A stretch of 64,000 bases of DNA from Polyangiaceae bacterium. GTDB lineage: Bacteria > Myxococcota_A > Polyangia > Polyangiales > Polyangiaceae. The stretch spans positions 32,001 through 96,000 of the forward strand of contig JBNKBE010000009.1 in NCBI GenBank assembly GCA_050287085.1, read 5' to 3'. The first letter of the stretch is position 1, and each line of letters begins with the position of its first letter. Under the pieces are notes generated by a model. The model was not told the DNA's origin. It did no database searches and saw only the letters and a list, made by a program, of their open reading frames with translations. Of this stretch, positions 2,609-19,945 are shown piece by piece. A program made the translations under genes and the position numbers.

Positions 2609-5600
2609 TCACTGCGGAACCGCGCTCCGCATCGGACAACGATTGGGAGCGGTTCGGCCGCACGTGCCCGCCACAGGACATTCTCCACACTCCACGATAT
2701 CGCCGCAGCCGTCGCCGATTGCGCCGCACTCTGCTTCGACGTCATCACACGTGCGTGGCACACACGCGGCTGGACTGCCGCACCGGAAGGGCATCTGTCC
2801 GCCGCAGACCTCGCCGTCGGGGCAAGCGCCACAGTCGATCGTTTCGCCGCAGCCGTCACCGGCAAGTCCGCACTCGATTCCCTGAGCGCCGCACCCCAGA
2901 GGCTCACACGCGGGTCCCTCAGCGCATCTATTGGGTCCGAGCGCGCCACATAGGAGGCCCTCCGGGCATCCGCCGCAGTCGAGTTGTCCCCCGCAGCCAT
3001 CGCCGATAATACCGCACTGAGCGTCAGCATCGCCGCAGGTGCGCGGAACGCAGCCGCCACAGCGATTGGGCTCGTGTAGTCCGCAGACAGTGTTGTCCGC
3101 GCAGGCCCCGCAATTTCGACTGCCACCGCAGCCGTCGCCCACTAGGCCGCATTCCGCATTCTGCTCTTCGCACGTGAGCGGCACGCACGCTGGCTCGCCG
3201 CACACGTTCGGTACGCCCGCGCCCCCGCAGATCTCGGGCAAAGTGCAGGTATCGCCGCAGTCCAACTCACCGGAGCAACCGTCGCTAATGCGCCCGCACT
3301 CCGCCGCCACCGGGCACTCGGTGAGCGGGACACAACTCTGTTCCACGCACTCGCCCTGACGACAGGCAAAACCTGCCTGACAGTCACCACAGGGGATCAC
3401 GTCGTCGCAACCGTTTGACACGTAGCCACAAACGTCCGCCCCGCAAACGTCACCGGCGAGCAGCGGCTCGCAACTTGCACTGCATCGGTTCGGTTCAGCG
3501 ATGCCGCACTCGCTGCCCAGAGCACAGGAGCCGCACGACAGCAGCTCGCCGCACCCATCCGAGATGGTTCCGCACTCTGCCCCAAGTGACGTGCACGTCG
3601 CTGGCTTGCACTCCGGTTCAGCACATATCCCCCCCGGAGTGCATACAAGCCCACCTCCGCAACCGCCACACGTGATATACCCGCCGCAACCATCAGCAAT
3701 TGCTCCACAGCGACCGCTACACGCGGCGGAGGTCAGTGGAGTGCACTCCGGTGGGGCCGCTTGCTCATTGGAGACGCAGGCGCCCAAATCAAATAGCATA
3801 TAGAGCAGAACCTTCTCCTGCTCGGATAGAGGCCCAGAACAATGCTCCGGGAAGATGGCCGCGGCATAGTCCTTGCCAGCCTCTGACACAACATGGAATC
3901 CGCTGTAGGCAACACGCCCGCAGATGTTTTCTTCTGGTGCCCCATAGGGAGTGTTGAATGAAAACTGCTGCACGGTCGACCCCGCCCAGCCACACTGGTC
4001 GCGTGCTAGGCAAGTGTCGATCTGATTCTTGTCGACGTCGCCAGAATCACAATCCGTCTTGAATGAACACGACCCGCTCCATTGACACTGTGGGTCCAAG
4101 ACACACGCTGACTCGGTCTTAGTATTGCAGTCGTTGACGAACGTGCATGCGTTGTCTCGCCACTCGCAGTTCGGATTCACGCTGCACATCTCGTCCGATA
4201 GCGCCGAGCACGGTCGGCAGAAGTCGCTCGCCCCGGATAGGTCGTCCAGCAATCGGTACACGAACTCTTCTGAGTGGTCGCCCACACTGGATGCCAGATC
4301 GCGAGGGTCGGTGATCTCAAAAGCGTAGCGCCCTTGAGCATCGATGGTGGCCGCTTGTTCGTTGACCGCCCACTGGGCAAAGGCCCCCGCCTTATCGAGG
4401 TTGGCACCGGGTCGCTGAAGCGATATGTAGCCCACGTCGACGCTTTGTGTGCCTAGTCCCGAGATCCAGGTCGCAGCTGAGGAAAGTCCGGTCGACAGCG
4501 GGGTCATCGCGTCATACGCCAGGTTTCCGTTGTCGTAGATCCAGGTGTAGCTCCAATGACTCGCGAATAGTCTTCCCCCCCGATTGACGAACTCACGAAT
4601 ATTGGGGTCGCTCGCGGGATGTTCAACGGCCGTCGACTGGCAGTCGAAGACCACCATATCGTACGAGAACAGTCGATCCAAGTTAGCGTGCAGCTCGGCG
4701 TCGCTGGCCGTGCCGCCCGCCATCTGGGCACCTCCCTGCACGTCCGCCCGATACATGTGAATGCGTGCGACATCAGCCCCGCCGGCGCCCGGCAAAGCGA
4801 ATTCTCCGTCGCTAACCCCCAGCTTGCTGAACACGCATTCCATGGCATCAACGCGCCCGGTCGACACGGCAACGCGGGGAATGTTAGCCCCCAAACCATC
4901 GTTCATCGAGCGCGGCAAGCGTGTCTGCTCGAGGGGCAGCGAAGTTGCGGCACAAGCGGCCGATGACGGCAAGGTGATCCGCTGAGCACGACGCCACTTG
5001 CCCGTCTTGACGACGAGAATGAACTCCTCCTCGACCGGAATGCTGCCCCGAAGAACGAACTGTCCCAACGCATCGGTCGTCGTGCTCACGAGTACGGGAC
5101 CAAGGTCTTGATCTTCACAGCGCTCGCAAGCGGTTGCTGGCTGTCCCCCGACGTCCGGAATTCCCGCGTCCACGCTGGGAAGCGCCGAGAGATCGTCGAC
5201 TTGCAAGATATAGACGAAAGCATTCGGAATACCCACCTGGTTGACCACGTCCTGCGCATGACGACCTGGCGTCTGCACGCGACCGGCAAGCGTCGTGACC
5301 TGCTGCTGACCAAAGCAATTCGGAATTGCGTCGCATAGGGGGCACTCACCTTGGCTGTCGGTTTCGTACGCAGCCAAACAGCGTGCCGGTCCGTTGATAC
5401 CCCCGATGCAGGTTTCCTGCTCTGGGTTGCACCCGATACCTTCTGCTGCGCAGTCAAAAACGTTGCCGCACTCGTCTACAGCAAGCCCACACTCCCACCC
5501 GAGTTCGCGACAGCTGCTGGCCTGAACACAGCCCGCCATGGGGTCGTCACATTGGTAGGCTGCGCCCACACCACACGCCTCACCGGCACCGCAGCCGCCA

Positions 5601-6853
5601 GTCAGGGCGTCACAATCGATCAGCGATGCTGCGTCCGTGCCGCATCCATCGCTCGTCACCCCACACTCCTTGTCGGCGCAAGCCTCCGCTGGTGTCATCG
5701 GTTGGCATCCGTCGATTCGAACACCACATTGGTAAGCCTCGGTTGCGCCGCAGGTTTCCCCACTGGGGCAGCTCCCGCAGTCTATGGTGCCCCCGCAACC
5801 GTCGGTGGTAACCCCACACCCCTTGTCCGCACACGCGTCGGTGGCAGAAAGCGGACTGCAGTCGAGCTCACAGCTCCCTTCCCGGCACGTGGTGCCGGCG
5901 GCACAGGTCCCGCAGCCAACGCTCCCACTGCAACCATCGCTTACAGCGCCGCACTGCTTGTCCTCACAGGCCTGTTGAGCCGTGATAGGCGAGCAGACCT
6001 CGGCCGTGGTGGCACATTCGTTGGCCACGCCCGCGCCCCCACATATTTCGTCATCGGCGCAGCCGAACCCCAGCGCAGAGCAGTCGATGAGGCCCCCGTC
6101 GACCTCCACGCCGCAGCCGTTGGACACGAATCCACAGCGCCCGTCACACGCCTCGGCCGCCGACAAGGGCAAGCAGTCCGGCGGGAGCCCGCACCTGCCG
6201 ACCGTCTCGGCGCCGCACACTTCGTCGGCCAAGCACCCGCCGACCTCCTGATTGCAATCGATAACCTCCCCACAGCCGTTGCCCGCGAAGCCGCACTCAA
6301 CCCCTTGCTCTTCGCAATTGCCAAGCTCAGCCGGACAGCTCTGCGCCGAGAACTCTGGCGCCGGAGCACACTCGAATGGCGTCACCAAGCCACACACCTC
6401 ATCGTCTGCGCACGAGCCGCAATCGATAGTTCCACCGCAACCGTCACCCGCCGCACCACAGGACTTGTCGACACACGCCTCGTCAGGGGTCAGCGGTGCA
6501 CAAAGCTCGCTGGCACTGGCACAACGACTTGGTTTCAAAACGCCACAGAACTGCCCCGCGCCACAGGCTCCACAATCGACAACGCCGCCACAACCGTCCC
6601 CGATGAGGCCACACTCAGCGCGTGCTTGCTCGCATGTCAGCGCTCGGCAGGACGCGGCGGACGCGTCCGCACCGAGCAGCGTGTCGTCCGGTTGCTCCGG
6701 TCCACCGTCGCGTCCCAAGCTGTGCTTTTCCGGATCTCCCGGTGAGTCTACAGCGGGGTTATTGCTACACGCCAGCGGAGCGCAGACAAGACACAACAAG
6801 ACGAGAGAGCGACAAGCGACAAGCAAAGTCGGGCGGCGGCGCACTGAAATCAT
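2609..6853 (-). CDS. Giant Cys-rich repeat lipoprotein with central carboxypeptidase-regulatory-like domain plus an alpha/beta domain
   Basis: Signal peptide with APLAC lipobox after ATG 6853 (alternative start 6907); 16 CGxxx[DN]GCGxxxxCGxC repeats; central non-repetitive region TTTDALGQFVL...IPRVAVSTGRVDAMEC...GGRLFASHW. Confidence 0.85.
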   Translation of the reverse strand: MISVRRRPTLLVACRSLVLLCLVCAPLACSNNPAVDSPGDPEKHSLGRDGGPEQPDDTLLGADASAASCRALTCEQARAECGLIGDGCGGVVDCGACGAGQFCGVLKPSRCASASELCAPLTPDEACVDKSCGAAGDGCGGTIDCGSCADDEVCGLVTPFECAPAPEFSAQSCPAELGNCEEQGVECGFAGNGCGEVIDCNQEVGGCLADEVCGAETVGRCGLPPDCLPLSAAEACDGRCGFVSNGCGVEVDGGLIDCSALGFGCADDEICGGAGVANECATTAEVCSPITAQQACEDKQCGAVSDGCSGSVGCGTCAAGTTCREGSCELDCSPLSATDACADKGCGVTTDGCGGTIDCGSCPSGETCGATEAYQCGVRIDGCQPMTPAEACADKECGVTSDGCGTDAASLIDCDALTGGCGAGEACGVGAAYQCDDPMAGCVQASSCRELGWECGLAVDECGNVFDCAAEGIGCNPEQETCIGGINGPARCLAAYETDSQGECPLCDAIPNCFGQQQVTTLAGRVQTPGRHAQDVVNQVGIPNAFVYILQVDDLSALPSVDAGIPDVGGQPATACERCEDQDLGPVLVSTTTDALGQFVLRGSIPVEEEFILVVKTGKWRRAQRITLPSSAACAATSLPLEQTRLPRSMNDGLGANIPRVAVSTGRVDAMECVFSKLGVSDGEFALPGAGGADVARIHMYRADVQGGAQMAGGTASDAELHANLDRLFSYDMVVFDCQSTAVEHPASDPNIREFVNRGGRLFASHWSYTWIYDNGNLAYDAMTPLSTGLSSAATWISGLGTQSVDVGYISLQRPGANLDKAGAFAQWAVNEQAATIDAQGRYAFEITDPRDLASSVGDHSEEFVYRLLDDLSGASDFCRPCSALSDEMCSVNPNCEWRDNACTFVNDCNTKTESACVLDPQCQWSGSCSFKTDCDSGDVDKNQIDTCLARDQCGWAGSTVQQFSFNTPYGAPEENICGRVAYSGFHVVSEAGKDYAAAIFPEHCSGPLSEQEKVLLYMLFDLGACVSNEQAAPPECTPLTSAACSGRCGAIADGCGGYITCGGCGGGLVCTPGGICAEPECKPATCTSLGAECGTISDGCGELLSCGSCALGSECGIAEPNRCSASCEPLLAGDVCGADVCGYVSNGCDDVIPCGDCQAGFACRQGECVEQSCVPLTECPVAAECGRISDGCSGELDCGDTCTLPEICGGAGVPNVCGEPACVPLTCEEQNAECGLVGDGCGGSRNCGACADNTVCGLHEPNRCGGCVPRTCGDADAQCGIIGDGCGGQLDCGGCPEGLLCGALGPNRCAEGPACEPLGCGAQGIECGLAGDGCGETIDCGACPDGEVCGGQMPFRCGSPAACVPRTCDDVEAECGAIGDGCGDIVECGECPVAGTCGRTAPNRCPMRSAVPQ

Positions 6854-7190
6854 TCTGTACCGAGAACGACAAGAAGCCACCGAAACCAAAGCACAAAAAG
6901 AACTCATGGCGGACCTCCCCGGAGGCTGTCTCAGGACCGAGTGCAAGCCCCTACACGACCGGACATGGCTCCGGGACCCCGAACTCGGTGGGGATGACCC
7001 AGGCTCGCGACGCACCCTCGCGACCGCTCGCCCCCGGCACGACCTGCCTCTTGGCGAAACACCGCAGTCGGACCGCACGACAAAAGTGCTGCATCTCACC
7101 GCCGGATCGCGATAGAAAGAGGAAACTGGGCCGGAACCGACGTATCATGAAGCGGTCGCGCGAGGCGGTTTCACGGGGCGTAGCGAAATA

Positions 7191-8840
7191 GTGTCACAAC
7201 AAGCACCAGTTCGGGTCGGCGACGTTATCGACGGCAAGTATCAAGTGACGCGCATTCTCGGCGCCGGTGGCATGGGTGTGGTCGTGGCCGCCCAGCATCT
7301 GCACCTGGCGCAGCCCGTCGCGCTGAAATTTCTGCTCGAGTCGCTGCTGCAACGGCCCGATCTCGTTGAGAGATTTCTGCGGGAGGCACGCAACTGCGTC
7401 AGCATCAATAGCGAACATGTGGTGCGCGTGATGGACGTCGGCCGCCTCCCCAGTGGGGCGCCTTTCATGGTGATGGAGTTCCTGCAGGGGCAGGACCTCG
7501 AGGCCGAAGTGCAACTGGACGGTGCGTTGGTCCCCGGGCGCGCCGTCGACTACGCCCTACAAGCCTGCGTGGGACTGGCGGAAGCCCACGTTAGACGTCT
7601 CATCCATCGCGATCTGAAGCCGGCCAATCTGTTTCTGACAACGCGAAGCGACGGCTACAAGCTCCTAAAAATACTCGATTTTGGAATCTCGAAGTCGCTC
7701 GCTGGCGGGGCCGACCACGCCTTGACGCAGACCAACCAATCGATGGGCACCCCGTATTACATGTCGCCCGAACAGATCCGCGCGGCAGCTGATGTGGATG
7801 GTAGGACCGACATCTGGTCGCTCGGGGCCATCCTGTACGAGATCATGGCGGGCGCTCCCCCTTTCTCCGCCAATACCGCAGCAGCCGTATGCGCTGCGGT
7901 ATTGGAGTCGTCGCCTCCGCCCCTGACGAGCCTGAGGCCCGACGTCCCCCCGGGGCTTTGGGAGGTCATCGCTTGGTGCTTGCGCAAGCGGCCCGAGGAC
8001 CGCCCTGCCAATGTTGCTGAACTCGCGGCGGCACTGGCTCCCTACGCCCAAGTAGAGCGCAACACCCATCAGCGGGTAGCCCGCATCCTCGGCTACGAAG
8101 CGCCCCCTAGCTCCGCGGCGCCGCACTCGAACGTCGCCAACATGTACGCGGCGGGGAGTGCACCGAATCGCTCGGCTTCCGGCGGCGTGGCGCGCCTCTC
8201 CTCAAGTCAACCCACGGTCGCGGCCGACCCGGCCAGGAGCTGGCCGGCACCCGTGCCGGCCGCGCCATCCCCTGGACTGAGAACGGACGCACCGTTCTCC
8301 CTGACCGACCACACTCGCCCGCCGCCCAGTCGCGGAGGTGCCGTCAAGTGGTTCGCTATCGCCGGCGCGAGCCTCGCATTTCTTGGCGCTCTCGCCTTTG
8401 CGATGACCCGCCTTGGCCGCGAAGAGCCCTCTGGTCCGCAATTGTCGGCAACCCAAGAAGTTCCAAGCCACCCAACGCCCACAAAGCCCCGGGCATTGGC
8501 CGCCGCCGTGGAGCCGGCGCCTGTCGCCGCCGCGAGCGCGCGCCCCGCTCAAGGGGCCGAGACCACGCCTGTGACAGCAGCTCCGACGACGATTGCCCCG
8601 CCTGCCCAGAACGCCCCGGCGACCCCAACTTCGTCGGCCACGCCCGTCTCGGACACGCGGCGGTCCAGGCCAAAGCACCGAATTCAGCGGCAGAAGCCGC
8701 CGGCTCCGCAGCCGAAAGATCCACCTCAGCAGTCCCCAAGCTACCGCTCAACGCCCGAACCCGCTTCGCCTTCCCAGACCACACCCCCGCGACCGGCAGC
8801 CCAGCCCGTCGCGCAGCCTGACCCGCTTGACGGCCTATAG
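7191..8840 (+). CDS. Membrane-anchored Hanks-type Ser/Thr protein kinase
   Basis: GAGGMG, VALK, HRDLKPAN, DFG, GTPYYMSPE, DIWSLG; TM helix WFAIAGASLAFLGALAFAM; Pro-rich tail ending DPLDGL. Confidence 0.96.
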   Translation: MSQQAPVRVGDVIDGKYQVTRILGAGGMGVVVAAQHLHLAQPVALKFLLESLLQRPDLVERFLREARNCVSINSEHVVRVMDVGRLPSGAPFMVMEFLQGQDLEAEVQLDGALVPGRAVDYALQACVGLAEAHVRRLIHRDLKPANLFLTTRSDGYKLLKILDFGISKSLAGGADHALTQTNQSMGTPYYMSPEQIRAAADVDGRTDIWSLGAILYEIMAGAPPFSANTAAAVCAAVLESSPPPLTSLRPDVPPGLWEVIAWCLRKRPEDRPANVAELAAALAPYAQVERNTHQRVARILGYEAPPSSAAPHSNVANMYAAGSAPNRSASGGVARLSSSQPTVAADPARSWPAPVPAAPSPGLRTDAPFSLTDHTRPPPSRGGAVKWFAIAGASLAFLGALAFAMTRLGREEPSGPQLSATQEVPSHPTPTKPRALAAAVEPAPVAAASARPAQGAETTPVTAAPTTIAPPAQNAPATPTSSATPVSDTRRSRPKHRIQRQKPPAPQPKDPPQQSPSYRSTPEPASPSQTTPPRPAAQPVAQPDPLDGL

Positions 8841-8979
8841 CCAGGCACGGCATTCCAGCGGTCTCTCCCTGCCTGCTTGAGGGAGTGCAGCCCTTTCTCC
8901 CATGCCGATCCCGAGATCCCACCGCGATAGCATAGCCCGACGTTGGCTGGCCCGACGCTGGCCACTGCGCGGTATAGCA

Positions 8980-10233
8980 ATGCTGCGCTGCATTGCAGTG
9001 CTGGCGACGACCACCCTCTGGCTGTCTTCCCCGAATCCCGTACTGGCGCAAGACGCCGTGGCGCAGTCACTCTTCGACGAAGGAAAGCGACTCCTGAAGG
9101 CGGGCAAGACGGCTGCCGCTTGTGAGAAATTTGCAGCCAGTGAGGCCGCCAAGGCGAGCACCGGGGCGCTCCTGAACCTGGCATCCTGTCACTTGAAGCT
9201 CGGCAAGACGGCCACGGCATGGGCGGAGTTCAAGCGCGCTATCCCACGAGCCCGTGCCGACGGCAGGCAAGACCGCATCGACTACGCCGAAGAGCAGGTC
9301 GCCGCCTTAGAGCCACTGCTCTCCAGGGTGACCCTGATCGCTCCCGAAGCGTTGACCCGCGTAGACGGATTACAGGTCGCCCTCGATGATGCCGTAGTCC
9401 CCCAGGTATCATTCGGACTCGAGCTGCCCATCGATCCAGGAAGCCACGCCATCCGCGTGTCCGCGTCTCGGCACAAGACTTGGTCGCGAACGTTCACCAT
9501 AACCGGCAATCGGCAACGCGAGACGGTCAGGCTACCGCTTCTGCAACGCCTCAAAGAAACCGTCGCCATCCGCATCGGGCGTTTGCCCGTCGTCAGCGGA
9601 CTCGTTGTGCGTATCGACGGAACGGTGCTCGACGCGGCGGCGCTACGCGATCCCATCGAAGTAGCTCCGGGAACCCATACCATCACCGCTGCAGCCCCGG
9701 ATCACGGTACGTGGAGCAAACGGCTGACGCTTGACGAAGCAGGAGAGAGTCTCTCGGTCGACGTGCCGGACCTGCGCGAAGGACAGACAACCCCGCCCGC
9801 CAGTGGCGATAGCTACCTCGACAGCCACAGCTCCCCCGCTCTCGCCCCCCGCAATGCTAGCCGGCGTCGAGGATCTACCACAAACTACGTCGCCATCGCC
9901 GGACTGGGACTCGCCCTCGTCGGGGCGGGCTCAGCGGCAGGTGGCATCGTGGCGGGTGTGGTCGCTCGCAACCGCGCCCAACAGGCGGTCAGTGGCACCG
10001 ATCTGTGCCCCAGCTACCAATGCTCGGAGCGGGGTTGGGACTACGTGGTGGCGGCCAAGAAAAACGCGCTGCTCGCCGACATCCTAATCCCATCTGGCAG
10101 CGCGCTCTTTGTCGTTGGCGTGGGCATGATGGTGCTCAGCGGTGGCTCCTCCGGCAGTTCGGGGACGCACGAGCTACCCACAGTATACTACGCCGGTGAT
10201 GAGTTCGGAGTGAGCTACGAGACTCAGTTCTAG
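8980..10233 (+). CDS. Secreted TPR + tandem PEGA-like domain protein
   Basis: Signal peptide ending VLA-Q; TPR-like AQSLFDEGKRL...GALLNLASCH; two PEGA-like repeats (IDPGSHAIRVSA, VAPGTHTITAAA); two hydrophobic helices and C-terminal GVSYETQF. Start could be 8902. Confidence 0.8.
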   Translation: MLRCIAVLATTTLWLSSPNPVLAQDAVAQSLFDEGKRLLKAGKTAAACEKFAASEAAKASTGALLNLASCHLKLGKTATAWAEFKRAIPRARADGRQDRIDYAEEQVAALEPLLSRVTLIAPEALTRVDGLQVALDDAVVPQVSFGLELPIDPGSHAIRVSASRHKTWSRTFTITGNRQRETVRLPLLQRLKETVAIRIGRLPVVSGLVVRIDGTVLDAAALRDPIEVAPGTHTITAAAPDHGTWSKRLTLDEAGESLSVDVPDLREGQTTPPASGDSYLDSHSSPALAPRNASRRRGSTTNYVAIAGLGLALVGAGSAAGGIVAGVVARNRAQQAVSGTDLCPSYQCSERGWDYVVAAKKNALLADILIPSGSALFVVGVGMMVLSGGSSGSSGTHELPTVYYAGDEFGVSYETQF

Positions 10234-10262
10234 CCGGCACACATCCAAGAAGGCCCAACCTG

Positions 10263-10460
10263 ATGCACAATACCACTATCTTGTTGCTGCTCTGCTCCAG
10301 TGTCGCGCTGGGCGGATGTGAACAGCTGATCAATCTCGATCAATTTGAGAAAGCGCCCAAAGCCAAGGACGATGGCTCCGGGGGTTCCGGGGTGAACGCT
10401 TCCAGGCTCGAGCCAATAGTGCCGTCCGTCGATGGTGGCATCCCACTGGGCCCGCGCTAA
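10263..10460 (+). CDS. Small (65 aa) lipoprotein
   Basis: AAGAAGG RBS-like sequence; hydrophobic stretch and LGGC lipobox; 29 bp after the PEGA gene. Confidence 0.7.
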   Translation: MHNTTILLLLCSSVALGGCEQLINLDQFEKAPKAKDDGSGGSGVNASRLEPIVPSVDGGIPLGPR

Positions 10461-10559
10461 GGGCCCGCGGGCGGGAAGGGAGCACAGCGACGAGCCCGCT
10501 CTGCGCAGCGCGAGCCCGAGGGCTGAGACGTGGCGCTTCACCCACGCCTTCTTTGCGTG

Positions 10560-11675
10560 CTACTGCTTCGCGTCCAGGATGATTCGCATCGTGCGGCGGA
10601 GCGGCTCCGCGGCACCCCAAAGCAGTTGATCGCCCACGGTGAAGGCACTCAAGTACTCGGGTCCGAGGCTTAGCTTTCTCAGTCGGCCGATCGCCACCCG
10701 GAGAGTGCCCGACACGGCCGCCGGAGACAGTCGCTTCAGCGTGCTTTGGTGCTCGTTGGGAACGAGGTCCACCCACGCATTGGAGGCGCTGATCGCCTGC
10801 TCGATGTCGGCGAGGGGAATGTCCTTCTTGAGCTTGATGGTGAGCGACTGAGAGTGCGAGCGCATAGCTCCAACGCGAACGCAGCAACCGTCCACGTGAA
10901 CACGCGGGTCGAGGCCCAAGATCTTGTTGGTCTCGTTCTCTCCCTTGCGTTCCTCATCCGTTTGCCCTGCTTGGAAAGCAGCTCCGCACCATGGAATCAG
11001 ACTCGCTGCGAGCGGCGCGCCCCACGCGGCGATCGGTCCGCCATCAGCCCGCATGGCGTCCTGAACCTTACGGTCTATCGCCAGAATATTCGACGCAGAA
11101 TCGTCCAACTCAGCCGCGGCTGCACCGGAATAGGTCCGCATCTGCTCCACCAGTTCACGCATGTTCTGAGCGCCCGCTCCAGACGCCGCCTGGTACGTCG
11201 CGACGTTGATCCATTCGACCCATTCGCGCTCAAAGAGGGCGTGAATGGCCATCAGCATGAGACTGACTGTACAATTGCCCCCAATATAGTCGCGCACACC
11301 CGCGGCCAGCGCCTCGTCGATGCGGTGGCGATTGACGGGATCGAGCACAATGACGGCATTGTCGGACAGGCGCAGAGTGGATGCCGCATCGATCCAATAG
11401 CCGTCGTATCCTGAAGCGCGAAGCTTGGAATGCATGGCCTTGGTATAGGCGCCGCCCTGACAGCTGATCACCATATCCAGTCCAGCGAACGCAGCCGGAT
11501 CATTGGCGTCCAGCAACGGCTGCGCGCCAGCCCCCACATCCGGACCCAGCTCACCCGCTTGCGACGTCGAAAAGAACCGGGGCTCGATGAGCTTGAAGTC
11601 CCCTTCTGCGCGCATGCGTTCAAGCAGAACCGACCCCACCATGCCACGCCAACCTACGATGCCTACGGTCTTCAT
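10560..11675 (-). CDS. asd: Aspartate-semialdehyde dehydrogenase (E. coli-type clade)
   Basis: MKTVGIVGWRGMVGSVL, YWIDAAS, GGNCTVS catalytic Cys, YQAASGAGA, GDQLLWGAAEPL. Confidence 0.96.
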   Translation of the reverse strand: MKTVGIVGWRGMVGSVLLERMRAEGDFKLIEPRFFSTSQAGELGPDVGAGAQPLLDANDPAAFAGLDMVISCQGGAYTKAMHSKLRASGYDGYWIDAASTLRLSDNAVIVLDPVNRHRIDEALAAGVRDYIGGNCTVSLMLMAIHALFEREWVEWINVATYQAASGAGAQNMRELVEQMRTYSGAAAAELDDSASNILAIDRKVQDAMRADGGPIAAWGAPLAASLIPWCGAAFQAGQTDEERKGENETNKILGLDPRVHVDGCCVRVGAMRSHSQSLTIKLKKDIPLADIEQAISASNAWVDLVPNEHQSTLKRLSPAAVSGTLRVAIGRLRKLSLGPEYLSAFTVGDQLLWGAAEPLRRTMRIILDAKQ

Positions 11676-15375: not shown

Positions 15376-15465
15376 GGAGAGATGACCGAGTGGTCGAAGG
15401 TGCATGATTGGAAATCATGTGTACTCGCAAGGGTACCGTGGGTTCGAATCCCACTCTCTCCGCCA
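15376..15465 (+). tRNA. tRNA-Ser(GGA)
   Basis: GGAGAGA acceptor stem pairing with TCTCTCC-G-CCA; anticodon arm CATGA-TTGGAAA-TCATG; long variable arm; GGTTCGAATCC T-arm; CCA encoded. Confidence 0.97.
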
Positions 15466-16181: not shown

Positions 16182-17402
16182 ATGACCCAGAACTACGACG
16201 TCCTAAACGCCGATGGGACCCCGATCAAAGCCTGGGTGCGCGGGGTAGCCCTGGACGAAGGGGCGGTGTTGCAGCTAACCCATATCGCGAACCTACCCTT
16301 CATCTACAAATGGGTCGCAGCCATGCCTGACGTACACGTCGGCAAGGGAGCGACGATCGGCTCGGTCATCGCGACTCGCAATGCCATCATCCCCGCCGCT
16401 GTGGGTGTGGACATCGGCTGCGGCATGATGGCAGTCCGCACCAGCCTCTGTTCTCGGGACTTGCCCGATCATCTGGAGCGTATTCGAGCGGCCATCGAAC
16501 GCGCTGTGCCGCACGGGCGCACCGGCGGGCGCCATCGAGACGCGGGCGCATGGGACGAAATACCCAGTGCCATTGGCTCGCGCTGGGCAGAGCTAGAGCC
16601 GCGCTTCGCTGAGCTCTGTGCCAGATATCCGCAGCTAAAGAACGCCAATACGGTCAGTCACCTGGGAACGCTCGGTACCGGCAACCACTTCATCGAGCTT
16701 TGCCTGGACGAGGCGGACCGCCTGTGGGTGATGTTGCATAGCGGCTCTCGGGGAGTGGGCAACCGCATCGGGAGTCATTTCATTGCGCTGGCCAAGAAGG
16801 AAATGGAGCGCTGGTTCATCCACCTGCCCGACCGCGACCTAGCTTACCTCAGCGAGGGCTCCAACCACTTCAACGACTATTGCTCCGCTGTAGAGTGGGC
16901 CCAGGACTACGCGCGGCTCAATCGAGAAGAGATGATGGCATCCGTGCTGCGCGCGCTCAGGGACAGTCGCAACTTGCCTCCCTTCACCGTGCAGGAAAGC
17001 GCGGTCAACTGCCATCACAATTACATATCGCGCGAAAGTCATTTCGGCGAGAACGTATGGATAACCCGGAAGGGCGCGGTTCGCGCCCGACGCGGAGAGC
17101 TCGGGATCATTCCTGGCAGCATGGGAGCTCACTCATTTATCGTACGAGGCAAGGGCCATCCCGAAAGCTTCTGCAGCTGCAGTCATGGCGCAGGCAGAGC
17201 CATGACGCGCACGGAAGCGCGCAAACGCTTTACGGTGGAGGACCATATGGCCGCCACGGCGGGTATCGAATGCCGCAAAGACGAGGCCGTAATCGACGAG
17301 ACCCCGATGGCATACAAGCCGATCGACGCCGTTATGGCCGCCCAACGTGACCTAGTGGACGTTGTCCATACACTGAACCAAGTCGTCTGCGTCAAGGGCT
17401 AA
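16182..17402 (+). CDS. rtcB: RtcB RNA ligase (3'-phosphate/5'-OH)
   Basis: PDVHVGKG, VGVDIGCGM, LGTLGTGNHFIE, LHSGSRG, CHHNY, SCSHGAGR, C-terminal VCVKG. Confidence 0.97.
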   Translation: MTQNYDVLNADGTPIKAWVRGVALDEGAVLQLTHIANLPFIYKWVAAMPDVHVGKGATIGSVIATRNAIIPAAVGVDIGCGMMAVRTSLCSRDLPDHLERIRAAIERAVPHGRTGGRHRDAGAWDEIPSAIGSRWAELEPRFAELCARYPQLKNANTVSHLGTLGTGNHFIELCLDEADRLWVMLHSGSRGVGNRIGSHFIALAKKEMERWFIHLPDRDLAYLSEGSNHFNDYCSAVEWAQDYARLNREEMMASVLRALRDSRNLPPFTVQESAVNCHHNYISRESHFGENVWITRKGAVRARRGELGIIPGSMGAHSFIVRGKGHPESFCSCSHGAGRAMTRTEARKRFTVEDHMAATAGIECRKDEAVIDETPMAYKPIDAVMAAQRDLVDVVHTLNQVVCVKG

Positions 17403-17418
17403 CGGACACCGTCGAGAG

Positions 17419-19449
17419 CTAGGAGCACCCGCCATGGCGTCGCTTGACTCGAGCCATCGCAAGAAACGCCATCGCTACGCACCAAGGGACCCGCCCCATG
17501 CCTCCACGAAGGGTCCGCGGTGTCAACCTACCGCCTGCGGCCACAGCTGAACAGTCACACCCCGCGTCTTGCGCCACGCCGTCACAGATGACAGTCTCAC
17601 TTTCCACCTCGGTCAACTGCAAGTGGCCGTCCCCATCCTGATCGACGCCGCCCAACACGATGGCTCCTCCGCCGCGACAAGATGCGTGGGCTGGGACCCG
17701 CTCGGTACGGACCAACCAAGGACCGTGAGTGCCGGCGTCGCTGCTCCGCGGCGAAACGCCAGCATCCGGCTCCGGATTGCACAGTCGAAACAAGACCCCG
17801 GCGCCGCCATCATCCCCAGGGGTTGTGCTCACCAGCAACCATCCTCCAGCGGGGCAGTCTTCATCTCCTACTGGAAGGGGCTCCGCGCGCCATGCATCAG
17901 CGGACAGGCCGTCACAGACCGGCAGCTCCGACTCGATTTCCTCCGACGCCAACTGGCCATCGCCATCCTCGTCGGTGCCAACCCGAACCCAAGTGCCGCC
18001 AGCGGCACACAGCTTTCCCGGAGCGACCGCGTCTGTTTCGACGAGGACACCGCGCGAGGCCGTACATAGTAACTCACGCTGCTGATACTCGAACTCGTCG
18101 AGTTCGCCGTCGCGGTCGATGTCAACACCCGCGCTCAACCAATACCCCTCCGGGCACTCAGATGAGCGAGCCGCCTGCAACGCGACCAACTCAGCACACT
18201 CACTCTCATCCTCTCGGTCGAAACACGCCCGTCTGCCGTCGCAGCGTTCACCGGGGCGGACGCGAGTGCCTCCATCACAGACCAGATCCAGCGCACACAA
18301 TCGCGGATCTTCGTCACTCCCTCCGGCGCAATCGTCGTGGCCGTCGCAGACGAAAGCCCGAGACGTATGCGTGCCGTCGAGGCAGAACCACGAACCACAA
18401 TACGCCTCGGACTCGTCCTCCCCCCCGGAACAATCGGGATAGTAGTCGCATAGGTACGATCCAGGAATCGAATCCCCGTCCTCGCACAAGAAGGGGCACG
18501 TAAAAGGCGATTCGTCCGCCCCATCCGCGCAGTCCACTTGGCCGTCGCAAGCAGCCCCGAGGGCAATTCGCTCACCGTCGCTGCACGGCACCTCCTCCAG
18601 CGTCGAGCATCTGCCGCCGGTAGTGCACGCGCTTAGCCAATCTCCAACCTGCGGCAGGGCCGCAACGCGCGAGTAGATACCGGGGATTCCAGCACGACCG
18701 CAGCCAATGCCGTAGCTGGTAATGCCGAGCAGCTCCGGCCCCGACGCACCCAAAGCCAGGAGCGGCCCGCCGCTATCGCCGGAACACGTGTCGGCTCCCC
18801 CCTCCGGGACGCCAGCGCAGAGCGTCGAGGCATCCGCTGCGCCCAAACCAACTGACTGCCGAACCAGACTACAACTCCATGCGTCCAGAAGGTCGAGCTC
18901 CACCTGTCGAAGCTCGGAGCTCGTATATCCCCCTTCAGAGGTCGCTCCGAAACCGAGTGCAAGCACCCGATCGCCCTGCACGAGATCACTTACCACGGCA
19001 ATGGGTTCCGCGTCCGCGTTCTCCGTCAGCTGCAGTAGCGCCAGGTCAAACGCTAGAGTCGTGGGATCGTGTTCCGGATGGAGGTACACCCCTTGAACAG
19101 ACATCCTCGTGACCTTGGTGTCCAGTCTGCCAAGCCCTAGGGCCAGCTGGATGTCCTCGGGCCGCACGATGTTAGGCAACGAAAAGACACAGTGTGCCGC
19201 CGTCAAGACCCAGTCCTGCGCCACCAGAACGCCCCCGCAGAAGGCGGCCTCTTTGGTATCGCTAATACTTGGATTGAGCAGAGTCGCAAGCCACGGGTAC
19301 GCGCCCTCTGGCGCTGGACCGCCACCAACGATTCGCGGCTGGGACACCGCGACGTCCGAAATCCCGAGAAGCGCCACTACCAAAGCAGCCGATAGCCGTC
19401 CTCGTGAGCCCCACGGGCCCGTCGTCGGACCGCCCCTTGTCCGAGTCAT
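17419..19449 (-). CDS. Trypsin-like (S1) serine protease with LDLa-like repeats, myxobacterial CxxGG/DxDxDG repeats and MYXO-CTERM-like anchor
   Basis: QPR-IVGG, LTAAHC, FDLALL, DTCSGDSGGP; four CD(G/Y)xx(D/A)CxxxxDE modules; GCDC then hydrophobic stretch then RVKRR at the C-terminus. Confidence 0.9.
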   Translation of the reverse strand: MTRTRGGPTTGPWGSRGRLSAALVVALLGISDVAVSQPRIVGGGPAPEGAYPWLATLLNPSISDTKEAAFCGGVLVAQDWVLTAAHCVFSLPNIVRPEDIQLALGLGRLDTKVTRMSVQGVYLHPEHDPTTLAFDLALLQLTENADAEPIAVVSDLVQGDRVLALGFGATSEGGYTSSELRQVELDLLDAWSCSLVRQSVGLGAADASTLCAGVPEGGADTCSGDSGGPLLALGASGPELLGITSYGIGCGRAGIPGIYSRVAALPQVGDWLSACTTGGRCSTLEEVPCSDGERIALGAACDGQVDCADGADESPFTCPFLCEDGDSIPGSYLCDYYPDCSGGEDESEAYCGSWFCLDGTHTSRAFVCDGHDDCAGGSDEDPRLCALDLVCDGGTRVRPGERCDGRRACFDREDESECAELVALQAARSSECPEGYWLSAGVDIDRDGELDEFEYQQRELLCTASRGVLVETDAVAPGKLCAAGGTWVRVGTDEDGDGQLASEEIESELPVCDGLSADAWRAEPLPVGDEDCPAGGWLLVSTTPGDDGGAGVLFRLCNPEPDAGVSPRSSDAGTHGPWLVRTERVPAHASCRGGGAIVLGGVDQDGDGHLQLTEVESETVICDGVAQDAGCDCSAVAAGGRLTPRTLRGGMGRVPWCVAMAFLAMARVKRRHGGCS

Positions 19450-19498
19450 ACACGTGCTCTCATCGCAGCGGCCTCGCTTGGAACGCCCGTCACCGCCG

Positions 19499-19945
19499 CT
19501 ACTCCGCCTGCAGCGAAACATGACGAATGCGGACCTTGGCCTCATTCAGCATTTCCATGCTGAGCGCGAAGTCCTCAGCCCACCTCTCTGGAATATCCGT
19601 TCCCTCGGGATAGACCACCTCGGAAACCCCGGCCTGTACCAGGGAACGTGCACACCGCGTACAAGGAGGCCACGTCACGTAGGCTGTGCACCCTCGCAGA
19701 CTGACGCCGATGCGCGCTGCATGCATGATGGCGTTTTCCTCAGCGTGACAGATCAGCGGGTACTTCTTGGCGCGGTCCGCTAGACGCTCAACACTGTCCT
19801 CAATCCCCCGCGGGAACCCGTTGAAGCCGGTACTCCGGATCTCTCGATCCGGTCCTACCACCACGCACCCCACTTTGCTCGAGGGGTCTTTGCTCCACGC
19901 AGAGATGTGCTGAGCCAAACGAAGGAATCTTCGATCCCACTTCAT
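19499..19945 (-). CDS. dCMP deaminase-family protein
   Basis: KWDRRFL, SKDPSSKVGC, TGFNG, HAEENA, PCTRC zinc motifs. Confidence 0.93.
   Translation of the reverse strand: MKWDRRFLRLAQHISAWSKDPSSKVGCVVVGPDREIRSTGFNGFPRGIEDSVERLADRAKKYPLICHAEENAIMHAARIGVSLRGCTAYVTWPPCTRCARSLVQAGVSEVVYPEGTDIPERWAEDFALSMEMLNEAKVRIRHVSLQAE

Follow-up and report, generated by a model that had tools for sequence, protein, structure and literature searches.

A kinase, TPR-PEGA partner and lipoprotein cassette of Polyangiaceae as a candidate partner-controlled signalling system with an address code

In this work we describe a three-gene locus of a Polyangiaceae bacterium (GCA_050287085.1). The stretch of DNA that was analysed, the window, covers 64,000 nucleotides of contig JBNKBE010000009.1 (positions 32,001-96,000), and the locus lies at window positions 7191-10460. 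It encodes a Hanks-type kinase, a secreted protein with TPR and PEGA domains that we call the partner, and a small lipoprotein. In Polyangiaceae and their relatives a cassette of such genes occurs in paralogous copies, and the three genes are one of them. The cassette is real and conserved and apparently undescribed in print, and it would represent partner-controlled membrane kinase signalling with an address code.

Genes and features of the locus

The three open reading frames (ORFs) all lie on the + strand, with intergenic gaps of 61 and 29 nucleotides. Their features are given below in window coordinates.

7191-8840, +: gene for a Hanks-type Ser/Thr kinase, 549 amino acids, GTG start (ORF); cytoplasmic kinase domain, one membrane helix, unstructured extracytoplasmic tail
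7239-8009, +: Pkinase domain (residues 17-273), catalytic motifs intact (PF00069, E 1.5e-43, 149.6 bits against a cut-off of 31.7)
8352-8408, +: predicted transmembrane helix (residues 388-406), hydropathy 1.92
8409-8837, +: Pro/Ala/Ser/Thr/Gly-rich tether of 143 residues (family median 125), 62% P/A/S/T/G
8820-8837, +: C-terminal DPLDGL, an Arg-less variant of the class I tail motif (NPLDGRL subtype) and putative TPR ligand
8902-10233, +: gene for the partner, a secreted TPR-PEGA-PEGA-helical hairpin-beta protein of 443 amino acids; signal peptide predicted, ending near A49
9046-9318, +: TPR domain of five helices (residues 49-139), from the AlphaFold model
9322-9759, +: two PEGA-type beta domains (residues 141-286), from the model; Pfam PEGA 25.6 bits against a cut-off of 20.8
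9874-10140, +: long helical hairpin (residues 325-413) with two hydrophobic halves and helices of roughly 40 residues each, from the model
10006-10023, +: Cys pair C369-C374 (CPSYQC) at the hairpin turn
10180-10230, +: terminal beta-hairpin ending in Phe (GVSYETQF), beta-signal-like, of low model confidence
10263-10460, +: gene for a 65-residue lipoprotein; signal peptide, lipobox Cys19, N-terminal motif, Gly/Ser linker, no cargo domain
10317-10346, +: lipoprotein N-terminal motif variant CEQLINLDQF

The Gly loop, VAxK, HRD and DFG motifs of the kinase are all intact, which places it among the Hanks-type kinases. Beyond Pkinase, no Pfam family was found in it at E up to 0.1. Its best NCBIfam match is the family of PknB/Stk1 PASTA kinases (NF033483, 258.5 bits over residues 10-296, below the 450-bit cut-off), to which it does not belong: the Pfam scan shows no PASTA repeats, and the kinase domain alone matches. 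In the alignment its tail is one residue shorter than NPLDGRL-type tails and lacks the Arg; no short or partial relatives of this tail were found.

For the partner we rely on an AlphaFold model from a 138-row alignment, with a mean predicted local distance difference test (pLDDT) of 86.6 and a predicted template modelling score (pTM) of 0.58. The gene may equally well start at an ATG at position 8980 as at 8902. The TPR assignment draws on the model helices, on profile matches to consensus TPRs and on superposition with the peptide-binding TPRs of Sti1, Tah1 and LpoP (Z 13-15, best TPR chain 14.9), with the single-sequence Pfam TPR_16 match being below its cut-off. A Foldseek search with the whole partner gave no informative match. 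A disordered linker joins the PEGA domains to the helical hairpin in the model. The doubling of PEGA is rare, with two motifs in 5 of 190 relatives and one in most, and a 57%-identical homologue (P0002) retains it along with the same groove residues in the TPR.

The lipoprotein carries the lipobox ALGG-C19, a pattern match from which lipidation is predicted. Its mature form of 47 residues compares with a family median of 355, and consists of anchor, motif and linker only. With a motif profile trained without this genome it nevertheless ranks fifth among the 862 lipobox-like ORFs of the genome. Other short family lipoproteins exist, of 73 and 91 residues; two further calls are shorter than that of the window, but the motif is absent from them and they look false. 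A search of 1.84 billion representatives gave no true homologue, the two matches being an unrelated repeat protein and a cystatin. The early stop of this gene is not contradicted by a public contig that shows zero differences over window positions 7000-10800, a contig which is possibly the source of the same DNA and gives no independent support. By eye, a 9-nucleotide direct repeat surrounds the stop codon (window 10448-10469); the repeat finder did not list it, and it may be a deletion scar or chance.

Much of what the first-pass annotation had read from the letters stands. It had described three co-oriented, closely spaced genes, an inner-membrane kinase with no folded sensor domain and a Pro-rich tether ending in DPLDGL, and a secreted protein with a TPR, two PEGA-like domains, a hairpin containing CPSYQC and a GVSYETQF end; all of this is found in the ORFs, the Pfam scans and the model. 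Two of its points need revision. The DPLDGL end is present, but instead of being an acidic-hydrophobic motif in its own right it is the Arg-less form of a family motif. The 65-residue lipoprotein is there with its lipobox, but its small size is atypical of a family whose members carry large and variable cargo.

The cassette family and its tail classes

The source genome (6.2 Mb in 160 contigs) has 73 kinase matches and 32 matches to the partner profile, the top 29 of which were taken as family members. Within 3.5 kb of one of these 29 we find 16 of the 73 kinases, where rough arithmetic predicts about 3; 13 of the 29 partner genes have no kinase within that distance. Partner relatives are present in 29 of 31 related genomes, often with 10-30 matches each. 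Of 301 genomes from the phylum, 216 have a profile match at E up to 1e-10, although some of these matches may be TPR-only. The named partner records come mostly from Polyangiaceae and Polyangiales, including Sorangium cellulosum So0157-2.

Our census of gene order sampled the window, 10 paralogous regions of the genome, 110 regions from the best 150 of 403 matches, and 80 further loci, the last picked by class I peptides and thus biasing the sample towards FGGRR-type cassettes. This gave 191 non-redundant partner ORFs, and kinase synteny was scored on the 149 with room on both sides. A kinase lies within 3.5 kb of the partner gene at 136 of the 149 (in 102 cases it is the next gene upstream, on the same strand; in 8 it adjoins the partner gene but is divergent; in 26 it lies elsewhere in this range); one locus has its kinase further away and 12 have none. 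Directly behind the partner gene there is a lipobox gene in 119 of 187 cases, a few of these calls being false. The gene order, which the first-pass annotation took to be common in Polyangiaceae, is conserved among these relatives. No kinase-partner fusion was found among 7991 longer candidates, which is weak evidence, and a metagenome scan for close orthologous loci returned three distant loci only.

The lipoproteins share little beyond their N-terminus. A motif just after the lipidated Cys is common to 83 of 119 family lipoproteins, most often as C-Q-S-I-A-G-I-E-D-R, and behind it the cargo diverges: 113 complete lipoproteins fall into 30 clusters, the largest of which (70 members) is inflated by sampling. 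Among the 47 that were scanned for domains, 4 have an FGE-sulfatase domain, 2 a lamin-tail domain and 1 a ThuA domain, and 40 have none. The largest cluster gives a confident model (pLDDT 88.9) of Cys-rich helical repeats with conserved His (e.g. L031:2854-3963, - strand), for which no solved structure matches at E up to 0.001. The Atlas offers BfoA_C at 0.88 for this cargo family, a lead only, and the literature under that name is unrelated.

At the other end of the system, the kinase tether is unconserved (mean column identity 15%) except for its last six residues. Among 162 paired kinases an Arg stands at position -2 in 137 and a hydrophobic residue at -5 in 142, with both in 129. The strict class I motif is hydrophobic-x-x-R-x; this genome's loci were left out, and dropping its four non-class-I loci takes the 162 to 158. 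The strict form is found at 129 of these 158 class I loci, along with 8 P-[YF] ends and 1 Cys-closed hairpin, and an Arg stands within the last two residues in 141. At 21 held-out class I loci the strict motif occurs in 11, a P-[YF] end in 2, a Cys-closed hairpin in none, and an Arg within the last two residues in 17. In this genome the strict motif ends 5 of the 73 kinases, and 4 of these lie close to a class I partner; as background, 110 of 3129 long ORFs end in it. It is also kept at 22 of 31 loci with the kinase apart from the partner, downstream of it or divergent, so that its presence does not require the end of the kinase gene to adjoin the partner gene.

Two further partner classes, each searched in 30 family genomes, go with different tails. 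At 22 loci with a class II TPR the strict motif is found in none, a P-[YF] ending in 14 and a Cys-closed hairpin in none. Class III partners have a four-cysteine helical domain in place of the TPR (L264, L265 and L266 in this genome; L284-L313), with no meaningful solved relative by profile; here all 20 upstream kinases, which come from other genomes, end in a Cys-closed hairpin mini-domain, with no strict motif and no P-[YF] end. The kinase tail motif that the first-pass annotation had singled out is thus conserved at the level of the family, and tail class matches partner-domain class. Several kinases of this genome (L278-L283) end in NPWD, NPWSK, DFGF, ELGY and NPFR, class II-like ends with no partner gene adjoining. 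Such orphan kinases may pair in trans with the 13 kinase-less partner genes.

Within class I, tail and TPR vary together. For 135 pairs we computed, under three weightings, the weighted mutual information of the kinase's last six residues with 170 columns of the partner, and compared the ranking with 22 positions that we take, from the TPR literature, to line the peptide groove. Of the top 20 covarying columns 11, 10 and 9 are groove positions at the three weightings, compared with 4, 5 and 4 for a control stretch of the linker. Mean z is 15-24 in the groove, 11-16 elsewhere in the TPR and 10-11 in PEGA columns of similar entropy. The covariation of tail with TPR that the first-pass annotation proposed to look for is therefore concentrated on the groove. 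Position 92 of the partner is aromatic in 79 of 83 pairs with FGxRx tails and Asn in 27 of 37 pairs with other tails (120 pairs). Position 125 is Arg in 133 of the 135 family rows and N92 is present in 31; the near-invariant Arg and the Asn may occupy the carboxylate-clamp positions known from Hop. The TPR of the window has N92. At 55, 95 and 112, where most relatives carry acidic residues, it has none, in keeping with its Arg-less tail. In a tree built without groove columns the TPRs nearest to it, in a placement that is not starred, go with DPL/NPL/DPT-type tails like that of the window. We consider it probable, on this comparative evidence, that the class I tail end binds the TPR groove of the partner.

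A receptor split across the envelope and its alternatives

The reading that we favour, with an even chance, is that the cassette is a receptor split across the envelope, with the lipoprotein as variable sensor, the partner as oligomeric outer-membrane adaptor, and the kinase tethered by its tail and switched by clustering. It keeps the outline of the first-pass annotation, whose inference is supported in part. The inner-membrane kinase would span the periplasm with its unstructured tail, and the last residues of the tail would bind the partner's TPR groove, where R125 would hold the terminal carboxylate. The partner would sit in the outer membrane as an oligomer, holding the lipoprotein as the sensing part; its capture of the lipoprotein's N-terminal motif is somewhat favoured. 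Activation could equally well come by clustering as by some other route, the partner oligomer gathering several kinases for dimerisation and autophosphorylation. Cross-talk among the roughly 16 copies of one genome would be prevented by the matching of motif classes. In the window copy the lipoprotein, reduced to anchor, motif and linker, is likely to be a cargo-free plug or a remnant.

Several results weigh against this reading, and they are given here together with the explanations that they favour. The groove set was fixed after an earlier column ranking had been seen, and kin among the 135 pairs are not independent, so that the p-values of the covariation analysis overstate the effect. At one of the weightings the linker control, too, shows a small preference for groove columns (p 0.004). 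A phylogeny-controlled independent-pairs test had 3 and 2 supported contrasts only, too few to reach significance. In a quick tree, class I kinases are mostly one clade (five of six, at a starred 99), and class-level matching of motifs is therefore partly co-inheritance. It could be, then, that the genes are merely co-inherited and co-regulated and that tail and TPR make no contact. We think this very improbable: the linker is variable apart from a conserved six-residue motif at its end, the covariation falls on one face of the TPR and not on equally variable PEGA columns, and tails of classes II and III are intermingled in a single kinase clade (at a starred 97), each type beside its own type of partner.

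The next points concern the lipoprotein and the reach of the kinase. Covariation of the lipoprotein motif with the partner has no clear localisation and does not point to the hairpin. In ten more distant genomes a kinase was found at 18 of 44 loci, a figure that is an undercount as flanks were 1.5 kb, and the strict tail motif occurs in none of 11 tails; a lipobox gene follows the partner at 23 of the 44 (two rows being one gene). Because the lipobox gene is found at more of these loci than the kinase, partner and lipoprotein may be the older core of the cassette. A core unit of this kind might be an anchor or a surface-display pair, with the kinase tail on the TPR only positioning or stabilising the kinase and no signal relayed from the lipoprotein. 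The kinase-less partner genes of the source genome agree with such a pair, as do the stand-alone hairpin proteins described below and the action of RtkS, which works on the kinase PpkA by stabilising it (PMC6082577). We nonetheless regard it as unlikely, given the undercounting of kinases at the distant loci, the retention of a kinase at 136 of 149 class I loci, and the diversity of cargo behind a fixed motif, which fits receptors with different inputs.

The membrane in which the partner sits is a further point of doubt. Its hairpin helices have hydrophobicities of 1.87 and 2.01, compared with 2.18 for kinase membrane helices, and do not discriminate between membranes. The two helices could therefore cross the inner membrane and make the partner a co-receptor there, with a periplasmic TPR that binds the tail of a neighbouring kinase and with the lipoprotein making contact from the periplasmic face of either membrane. 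The low model confidence of the terminal beta-hairpin, which alone is not beyond shuffles (54 of 500), points the same way. Set against it is the family-wide character of the partner's end, which agrees with the beta-signal-like strand of the first-pass annotation: the last residue is F, W or Y in 160 of 190 ORFs, and hydrophobic residues stand at -5 in 170 and at -7 in 169. Position -3 is mostly Gly (143) and is Thr in the window partner, and the aromatic alternating strand resembles that of substrates of the beta-barrel assembly machinery. A Cys pair stands near the hairpin turn in 173 of 190. With a cleaved signal peptide, a hairpin spanning the inner membrane would leave these cysteines in the cytoplasm; with an outer-membrane hairpin they would lie outside, where disulfides are expected. 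In four relatives (L121, L145, L037, L388) the TPR-PEGA part is joined to 6-7 amphipathic C-terminal strands (12-24 of 500 shuffles score as high) that look like small beta-barrels replacing the helical hairpin. A tether of 125 residues would, moreover, serve no need at the inner membrane. An inner-membrane co-receptor thus seems quite unlikely to us, and insertion of the partner into the outer membrane by its helical hairpin and terminal strands is likely, judging from the protein sequences. With two low-confidence strands per chain in the model no barrel can be closed, and an oligomer is therefore implied. Stand-alone proteins of 143-153 residues in Myxococcota (ESM Atlas clusters) resemble the hairpin-plus-strand region alone, with a score of 0.96.

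Finally, the copy in the window differs from its family in the tail Arg and the acidic groove positions (Q55, S95, R112). It may be decaying, with the lipoprotein cargo and the kinase tail Arg lost, while the family works as proposed; this is compatible with the split receptor. The short mature lipoprotein, the lack of a true homologue among the representatives searched and the shortened tail all point this way. On the other hand, kinase and partner are intact, the 57%-identical homologue has the same double PEGA and groove residues, the loss of acidic groove residues matches that of the Arg, the lipoprotein motif still ranks fifth in the genome, and other short lipoproteins exist. Decay is accordingly rather unlikely in our view.

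Taken more broadly, the split receptor suggests a modular two-membrane receptor-kinase system in Polyangia, a picture that we hold tentatively, at somewhat less than even. An interchangeable surface lipoprotein would dock on an outer-membrane oligomer of helical hairpins and beta-hairpins, and a periplasmic reader (two TPR types or a Cys-rich helical domain) would capture the matching C-terminal address of the kinase tether. At least three lock-and-key classes would insulate dozens of paralogous channels and would explain the input of many sensor-less myxobacterial kinases.

Surroundings, significance and comparison with known systems

The locus is flanked by a divergent gene for a Cys-rich lipoprotein on one side and by a convergent asd gene (aspartate-semialdehyde dehydrogenase) on the other. 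The divergent gene (window 2609-6907, - strand) encodes a probable lipoprotein of 1432 amino acids with 157 cysteines and no Pfam or NCBIfam match. We rejected it as the cognate cargo: its non-repetitive core has no homologue in 201 cassette loci or elsewhere in the genome, and the motif is absent. A promoter scan at the locus gave no sites, and terminators number 3 where 2.7 are expected; among public sequencing runs no RNA data set holding this DNA was listed. Further along the window there is a tRNA-Ser(GGA) at 15376-15465, and at 16182-19545 what we take from the translations to be an RtcB-like ORF and a trypsin-like protein with LDL-receptor-like Cys repeats.

The first-pass annotation knew of no mechanistic description, and our literature search, outside which most subscription papers fall, found no description of the cassette; PMC7159879 and PMC13749626 mention PEGA in other contexts. 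Eukaryotic-like kinases number 353 in Minicystis rosea and 317 in Sorangium cellulosum So ce56, according to PMC8436480. Many of the hundreds of kinases of Polyangiaceae have no folded sensor domain, and 16 of the 73 here adjoin a member of the partner family. If the pairing of tail and reader is true, it would provide an input route for a large share of these kinases and allow orphan kinases to be assigned to partners by a predictive code, and the partner would probably represent a novel type of oligomeric anchor in the outer membrane. Cultured Sorangium has the cassette, and short peptides with one small domain would be enough to test the key step.

The cassette is a member neither of the PpkA and LpoP systems nor of the PASTA kinases or FecIRA signalling. 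Among known systems, the PpkA inputs of type VI secretion, TagQRST in Pseudomonas aeruginosa and RtkS in Serratia marcescens, bind and stabilise or activate PpkA, for which dimerisation is the accepted activation route (PMC6082577). The likeness is that a membrane Hanks kinase is under periplasmic control, with a partner from a separate gene binding the part of the kinase outside the cytoplasm, which on the side of the cassette is our proposal. The RtkS-PpkA structure (PDB 9k1u) is among the weak Foldseek matches of the partner, with a template modelling score of 0.60 over a 77-residue chain and E 0.013. TagR has an FGE-sulfatase domain, as do the 4 scanned family lipoproteins noted above. There are clear differences: PpkA has a periplasmic domain of about 120 residues, whereas in the cassette kinase a terminal motif closes a tether of low complexity; the cassette partner, unlike TagQRST and RtkS, has a membrane hairpin and a beta-signal-like end; the cassette is repeated many times per genome; and no type VI secretion, Fha or PppA gene is found among the flanking genes, to which this search was confined.

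In LpoP-PBP1B a TPR on a lipoprotein linker reaches an inner-membrane enzyme (10.1101/2020.08.02.233189). Trans-periplasmic control by a small TPR and a disordered linker would be common to both, and the TPR of the partner matches that of PDB 6w5q (Z 14.3, root-mean-square deviation 3.5 over 93 residues). In the cassette, however, it is the kinase that carries the linker, and the TPR is part of a membrane protein that is not lipidated. Co-chaperone TPRs (Sti1/Hop, Tah1, RPAP3), whose ligands are C-terminal peptides, have the same five-helix TPR (Z 13.4-14.3), but the cassette ligand would be basic near its end rather than EEVD, and the cassette TPR is on an exported protein. The PknB/Stk1 PASTA kinases are alike in kinase domain and single membrane helix, from which the cassette kinase differs in having neither PASTA nor any other folded sensor domain.

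In FecA-FecR-FecI cell-surface signalling an outer-membrane component makes a periplasmic contact with an inner-membrane transducer. The proposed logic of the cassette, from outer membrane through periplasm to inner-membrane transducer, is shared with this system. The components are different, as no TonB-dependent receptor, anti-sigma factor or extracytoplasmic function sigma factor is found among the three proteins at E up to 0.1, and the output of the cassette would be phosphorylation.

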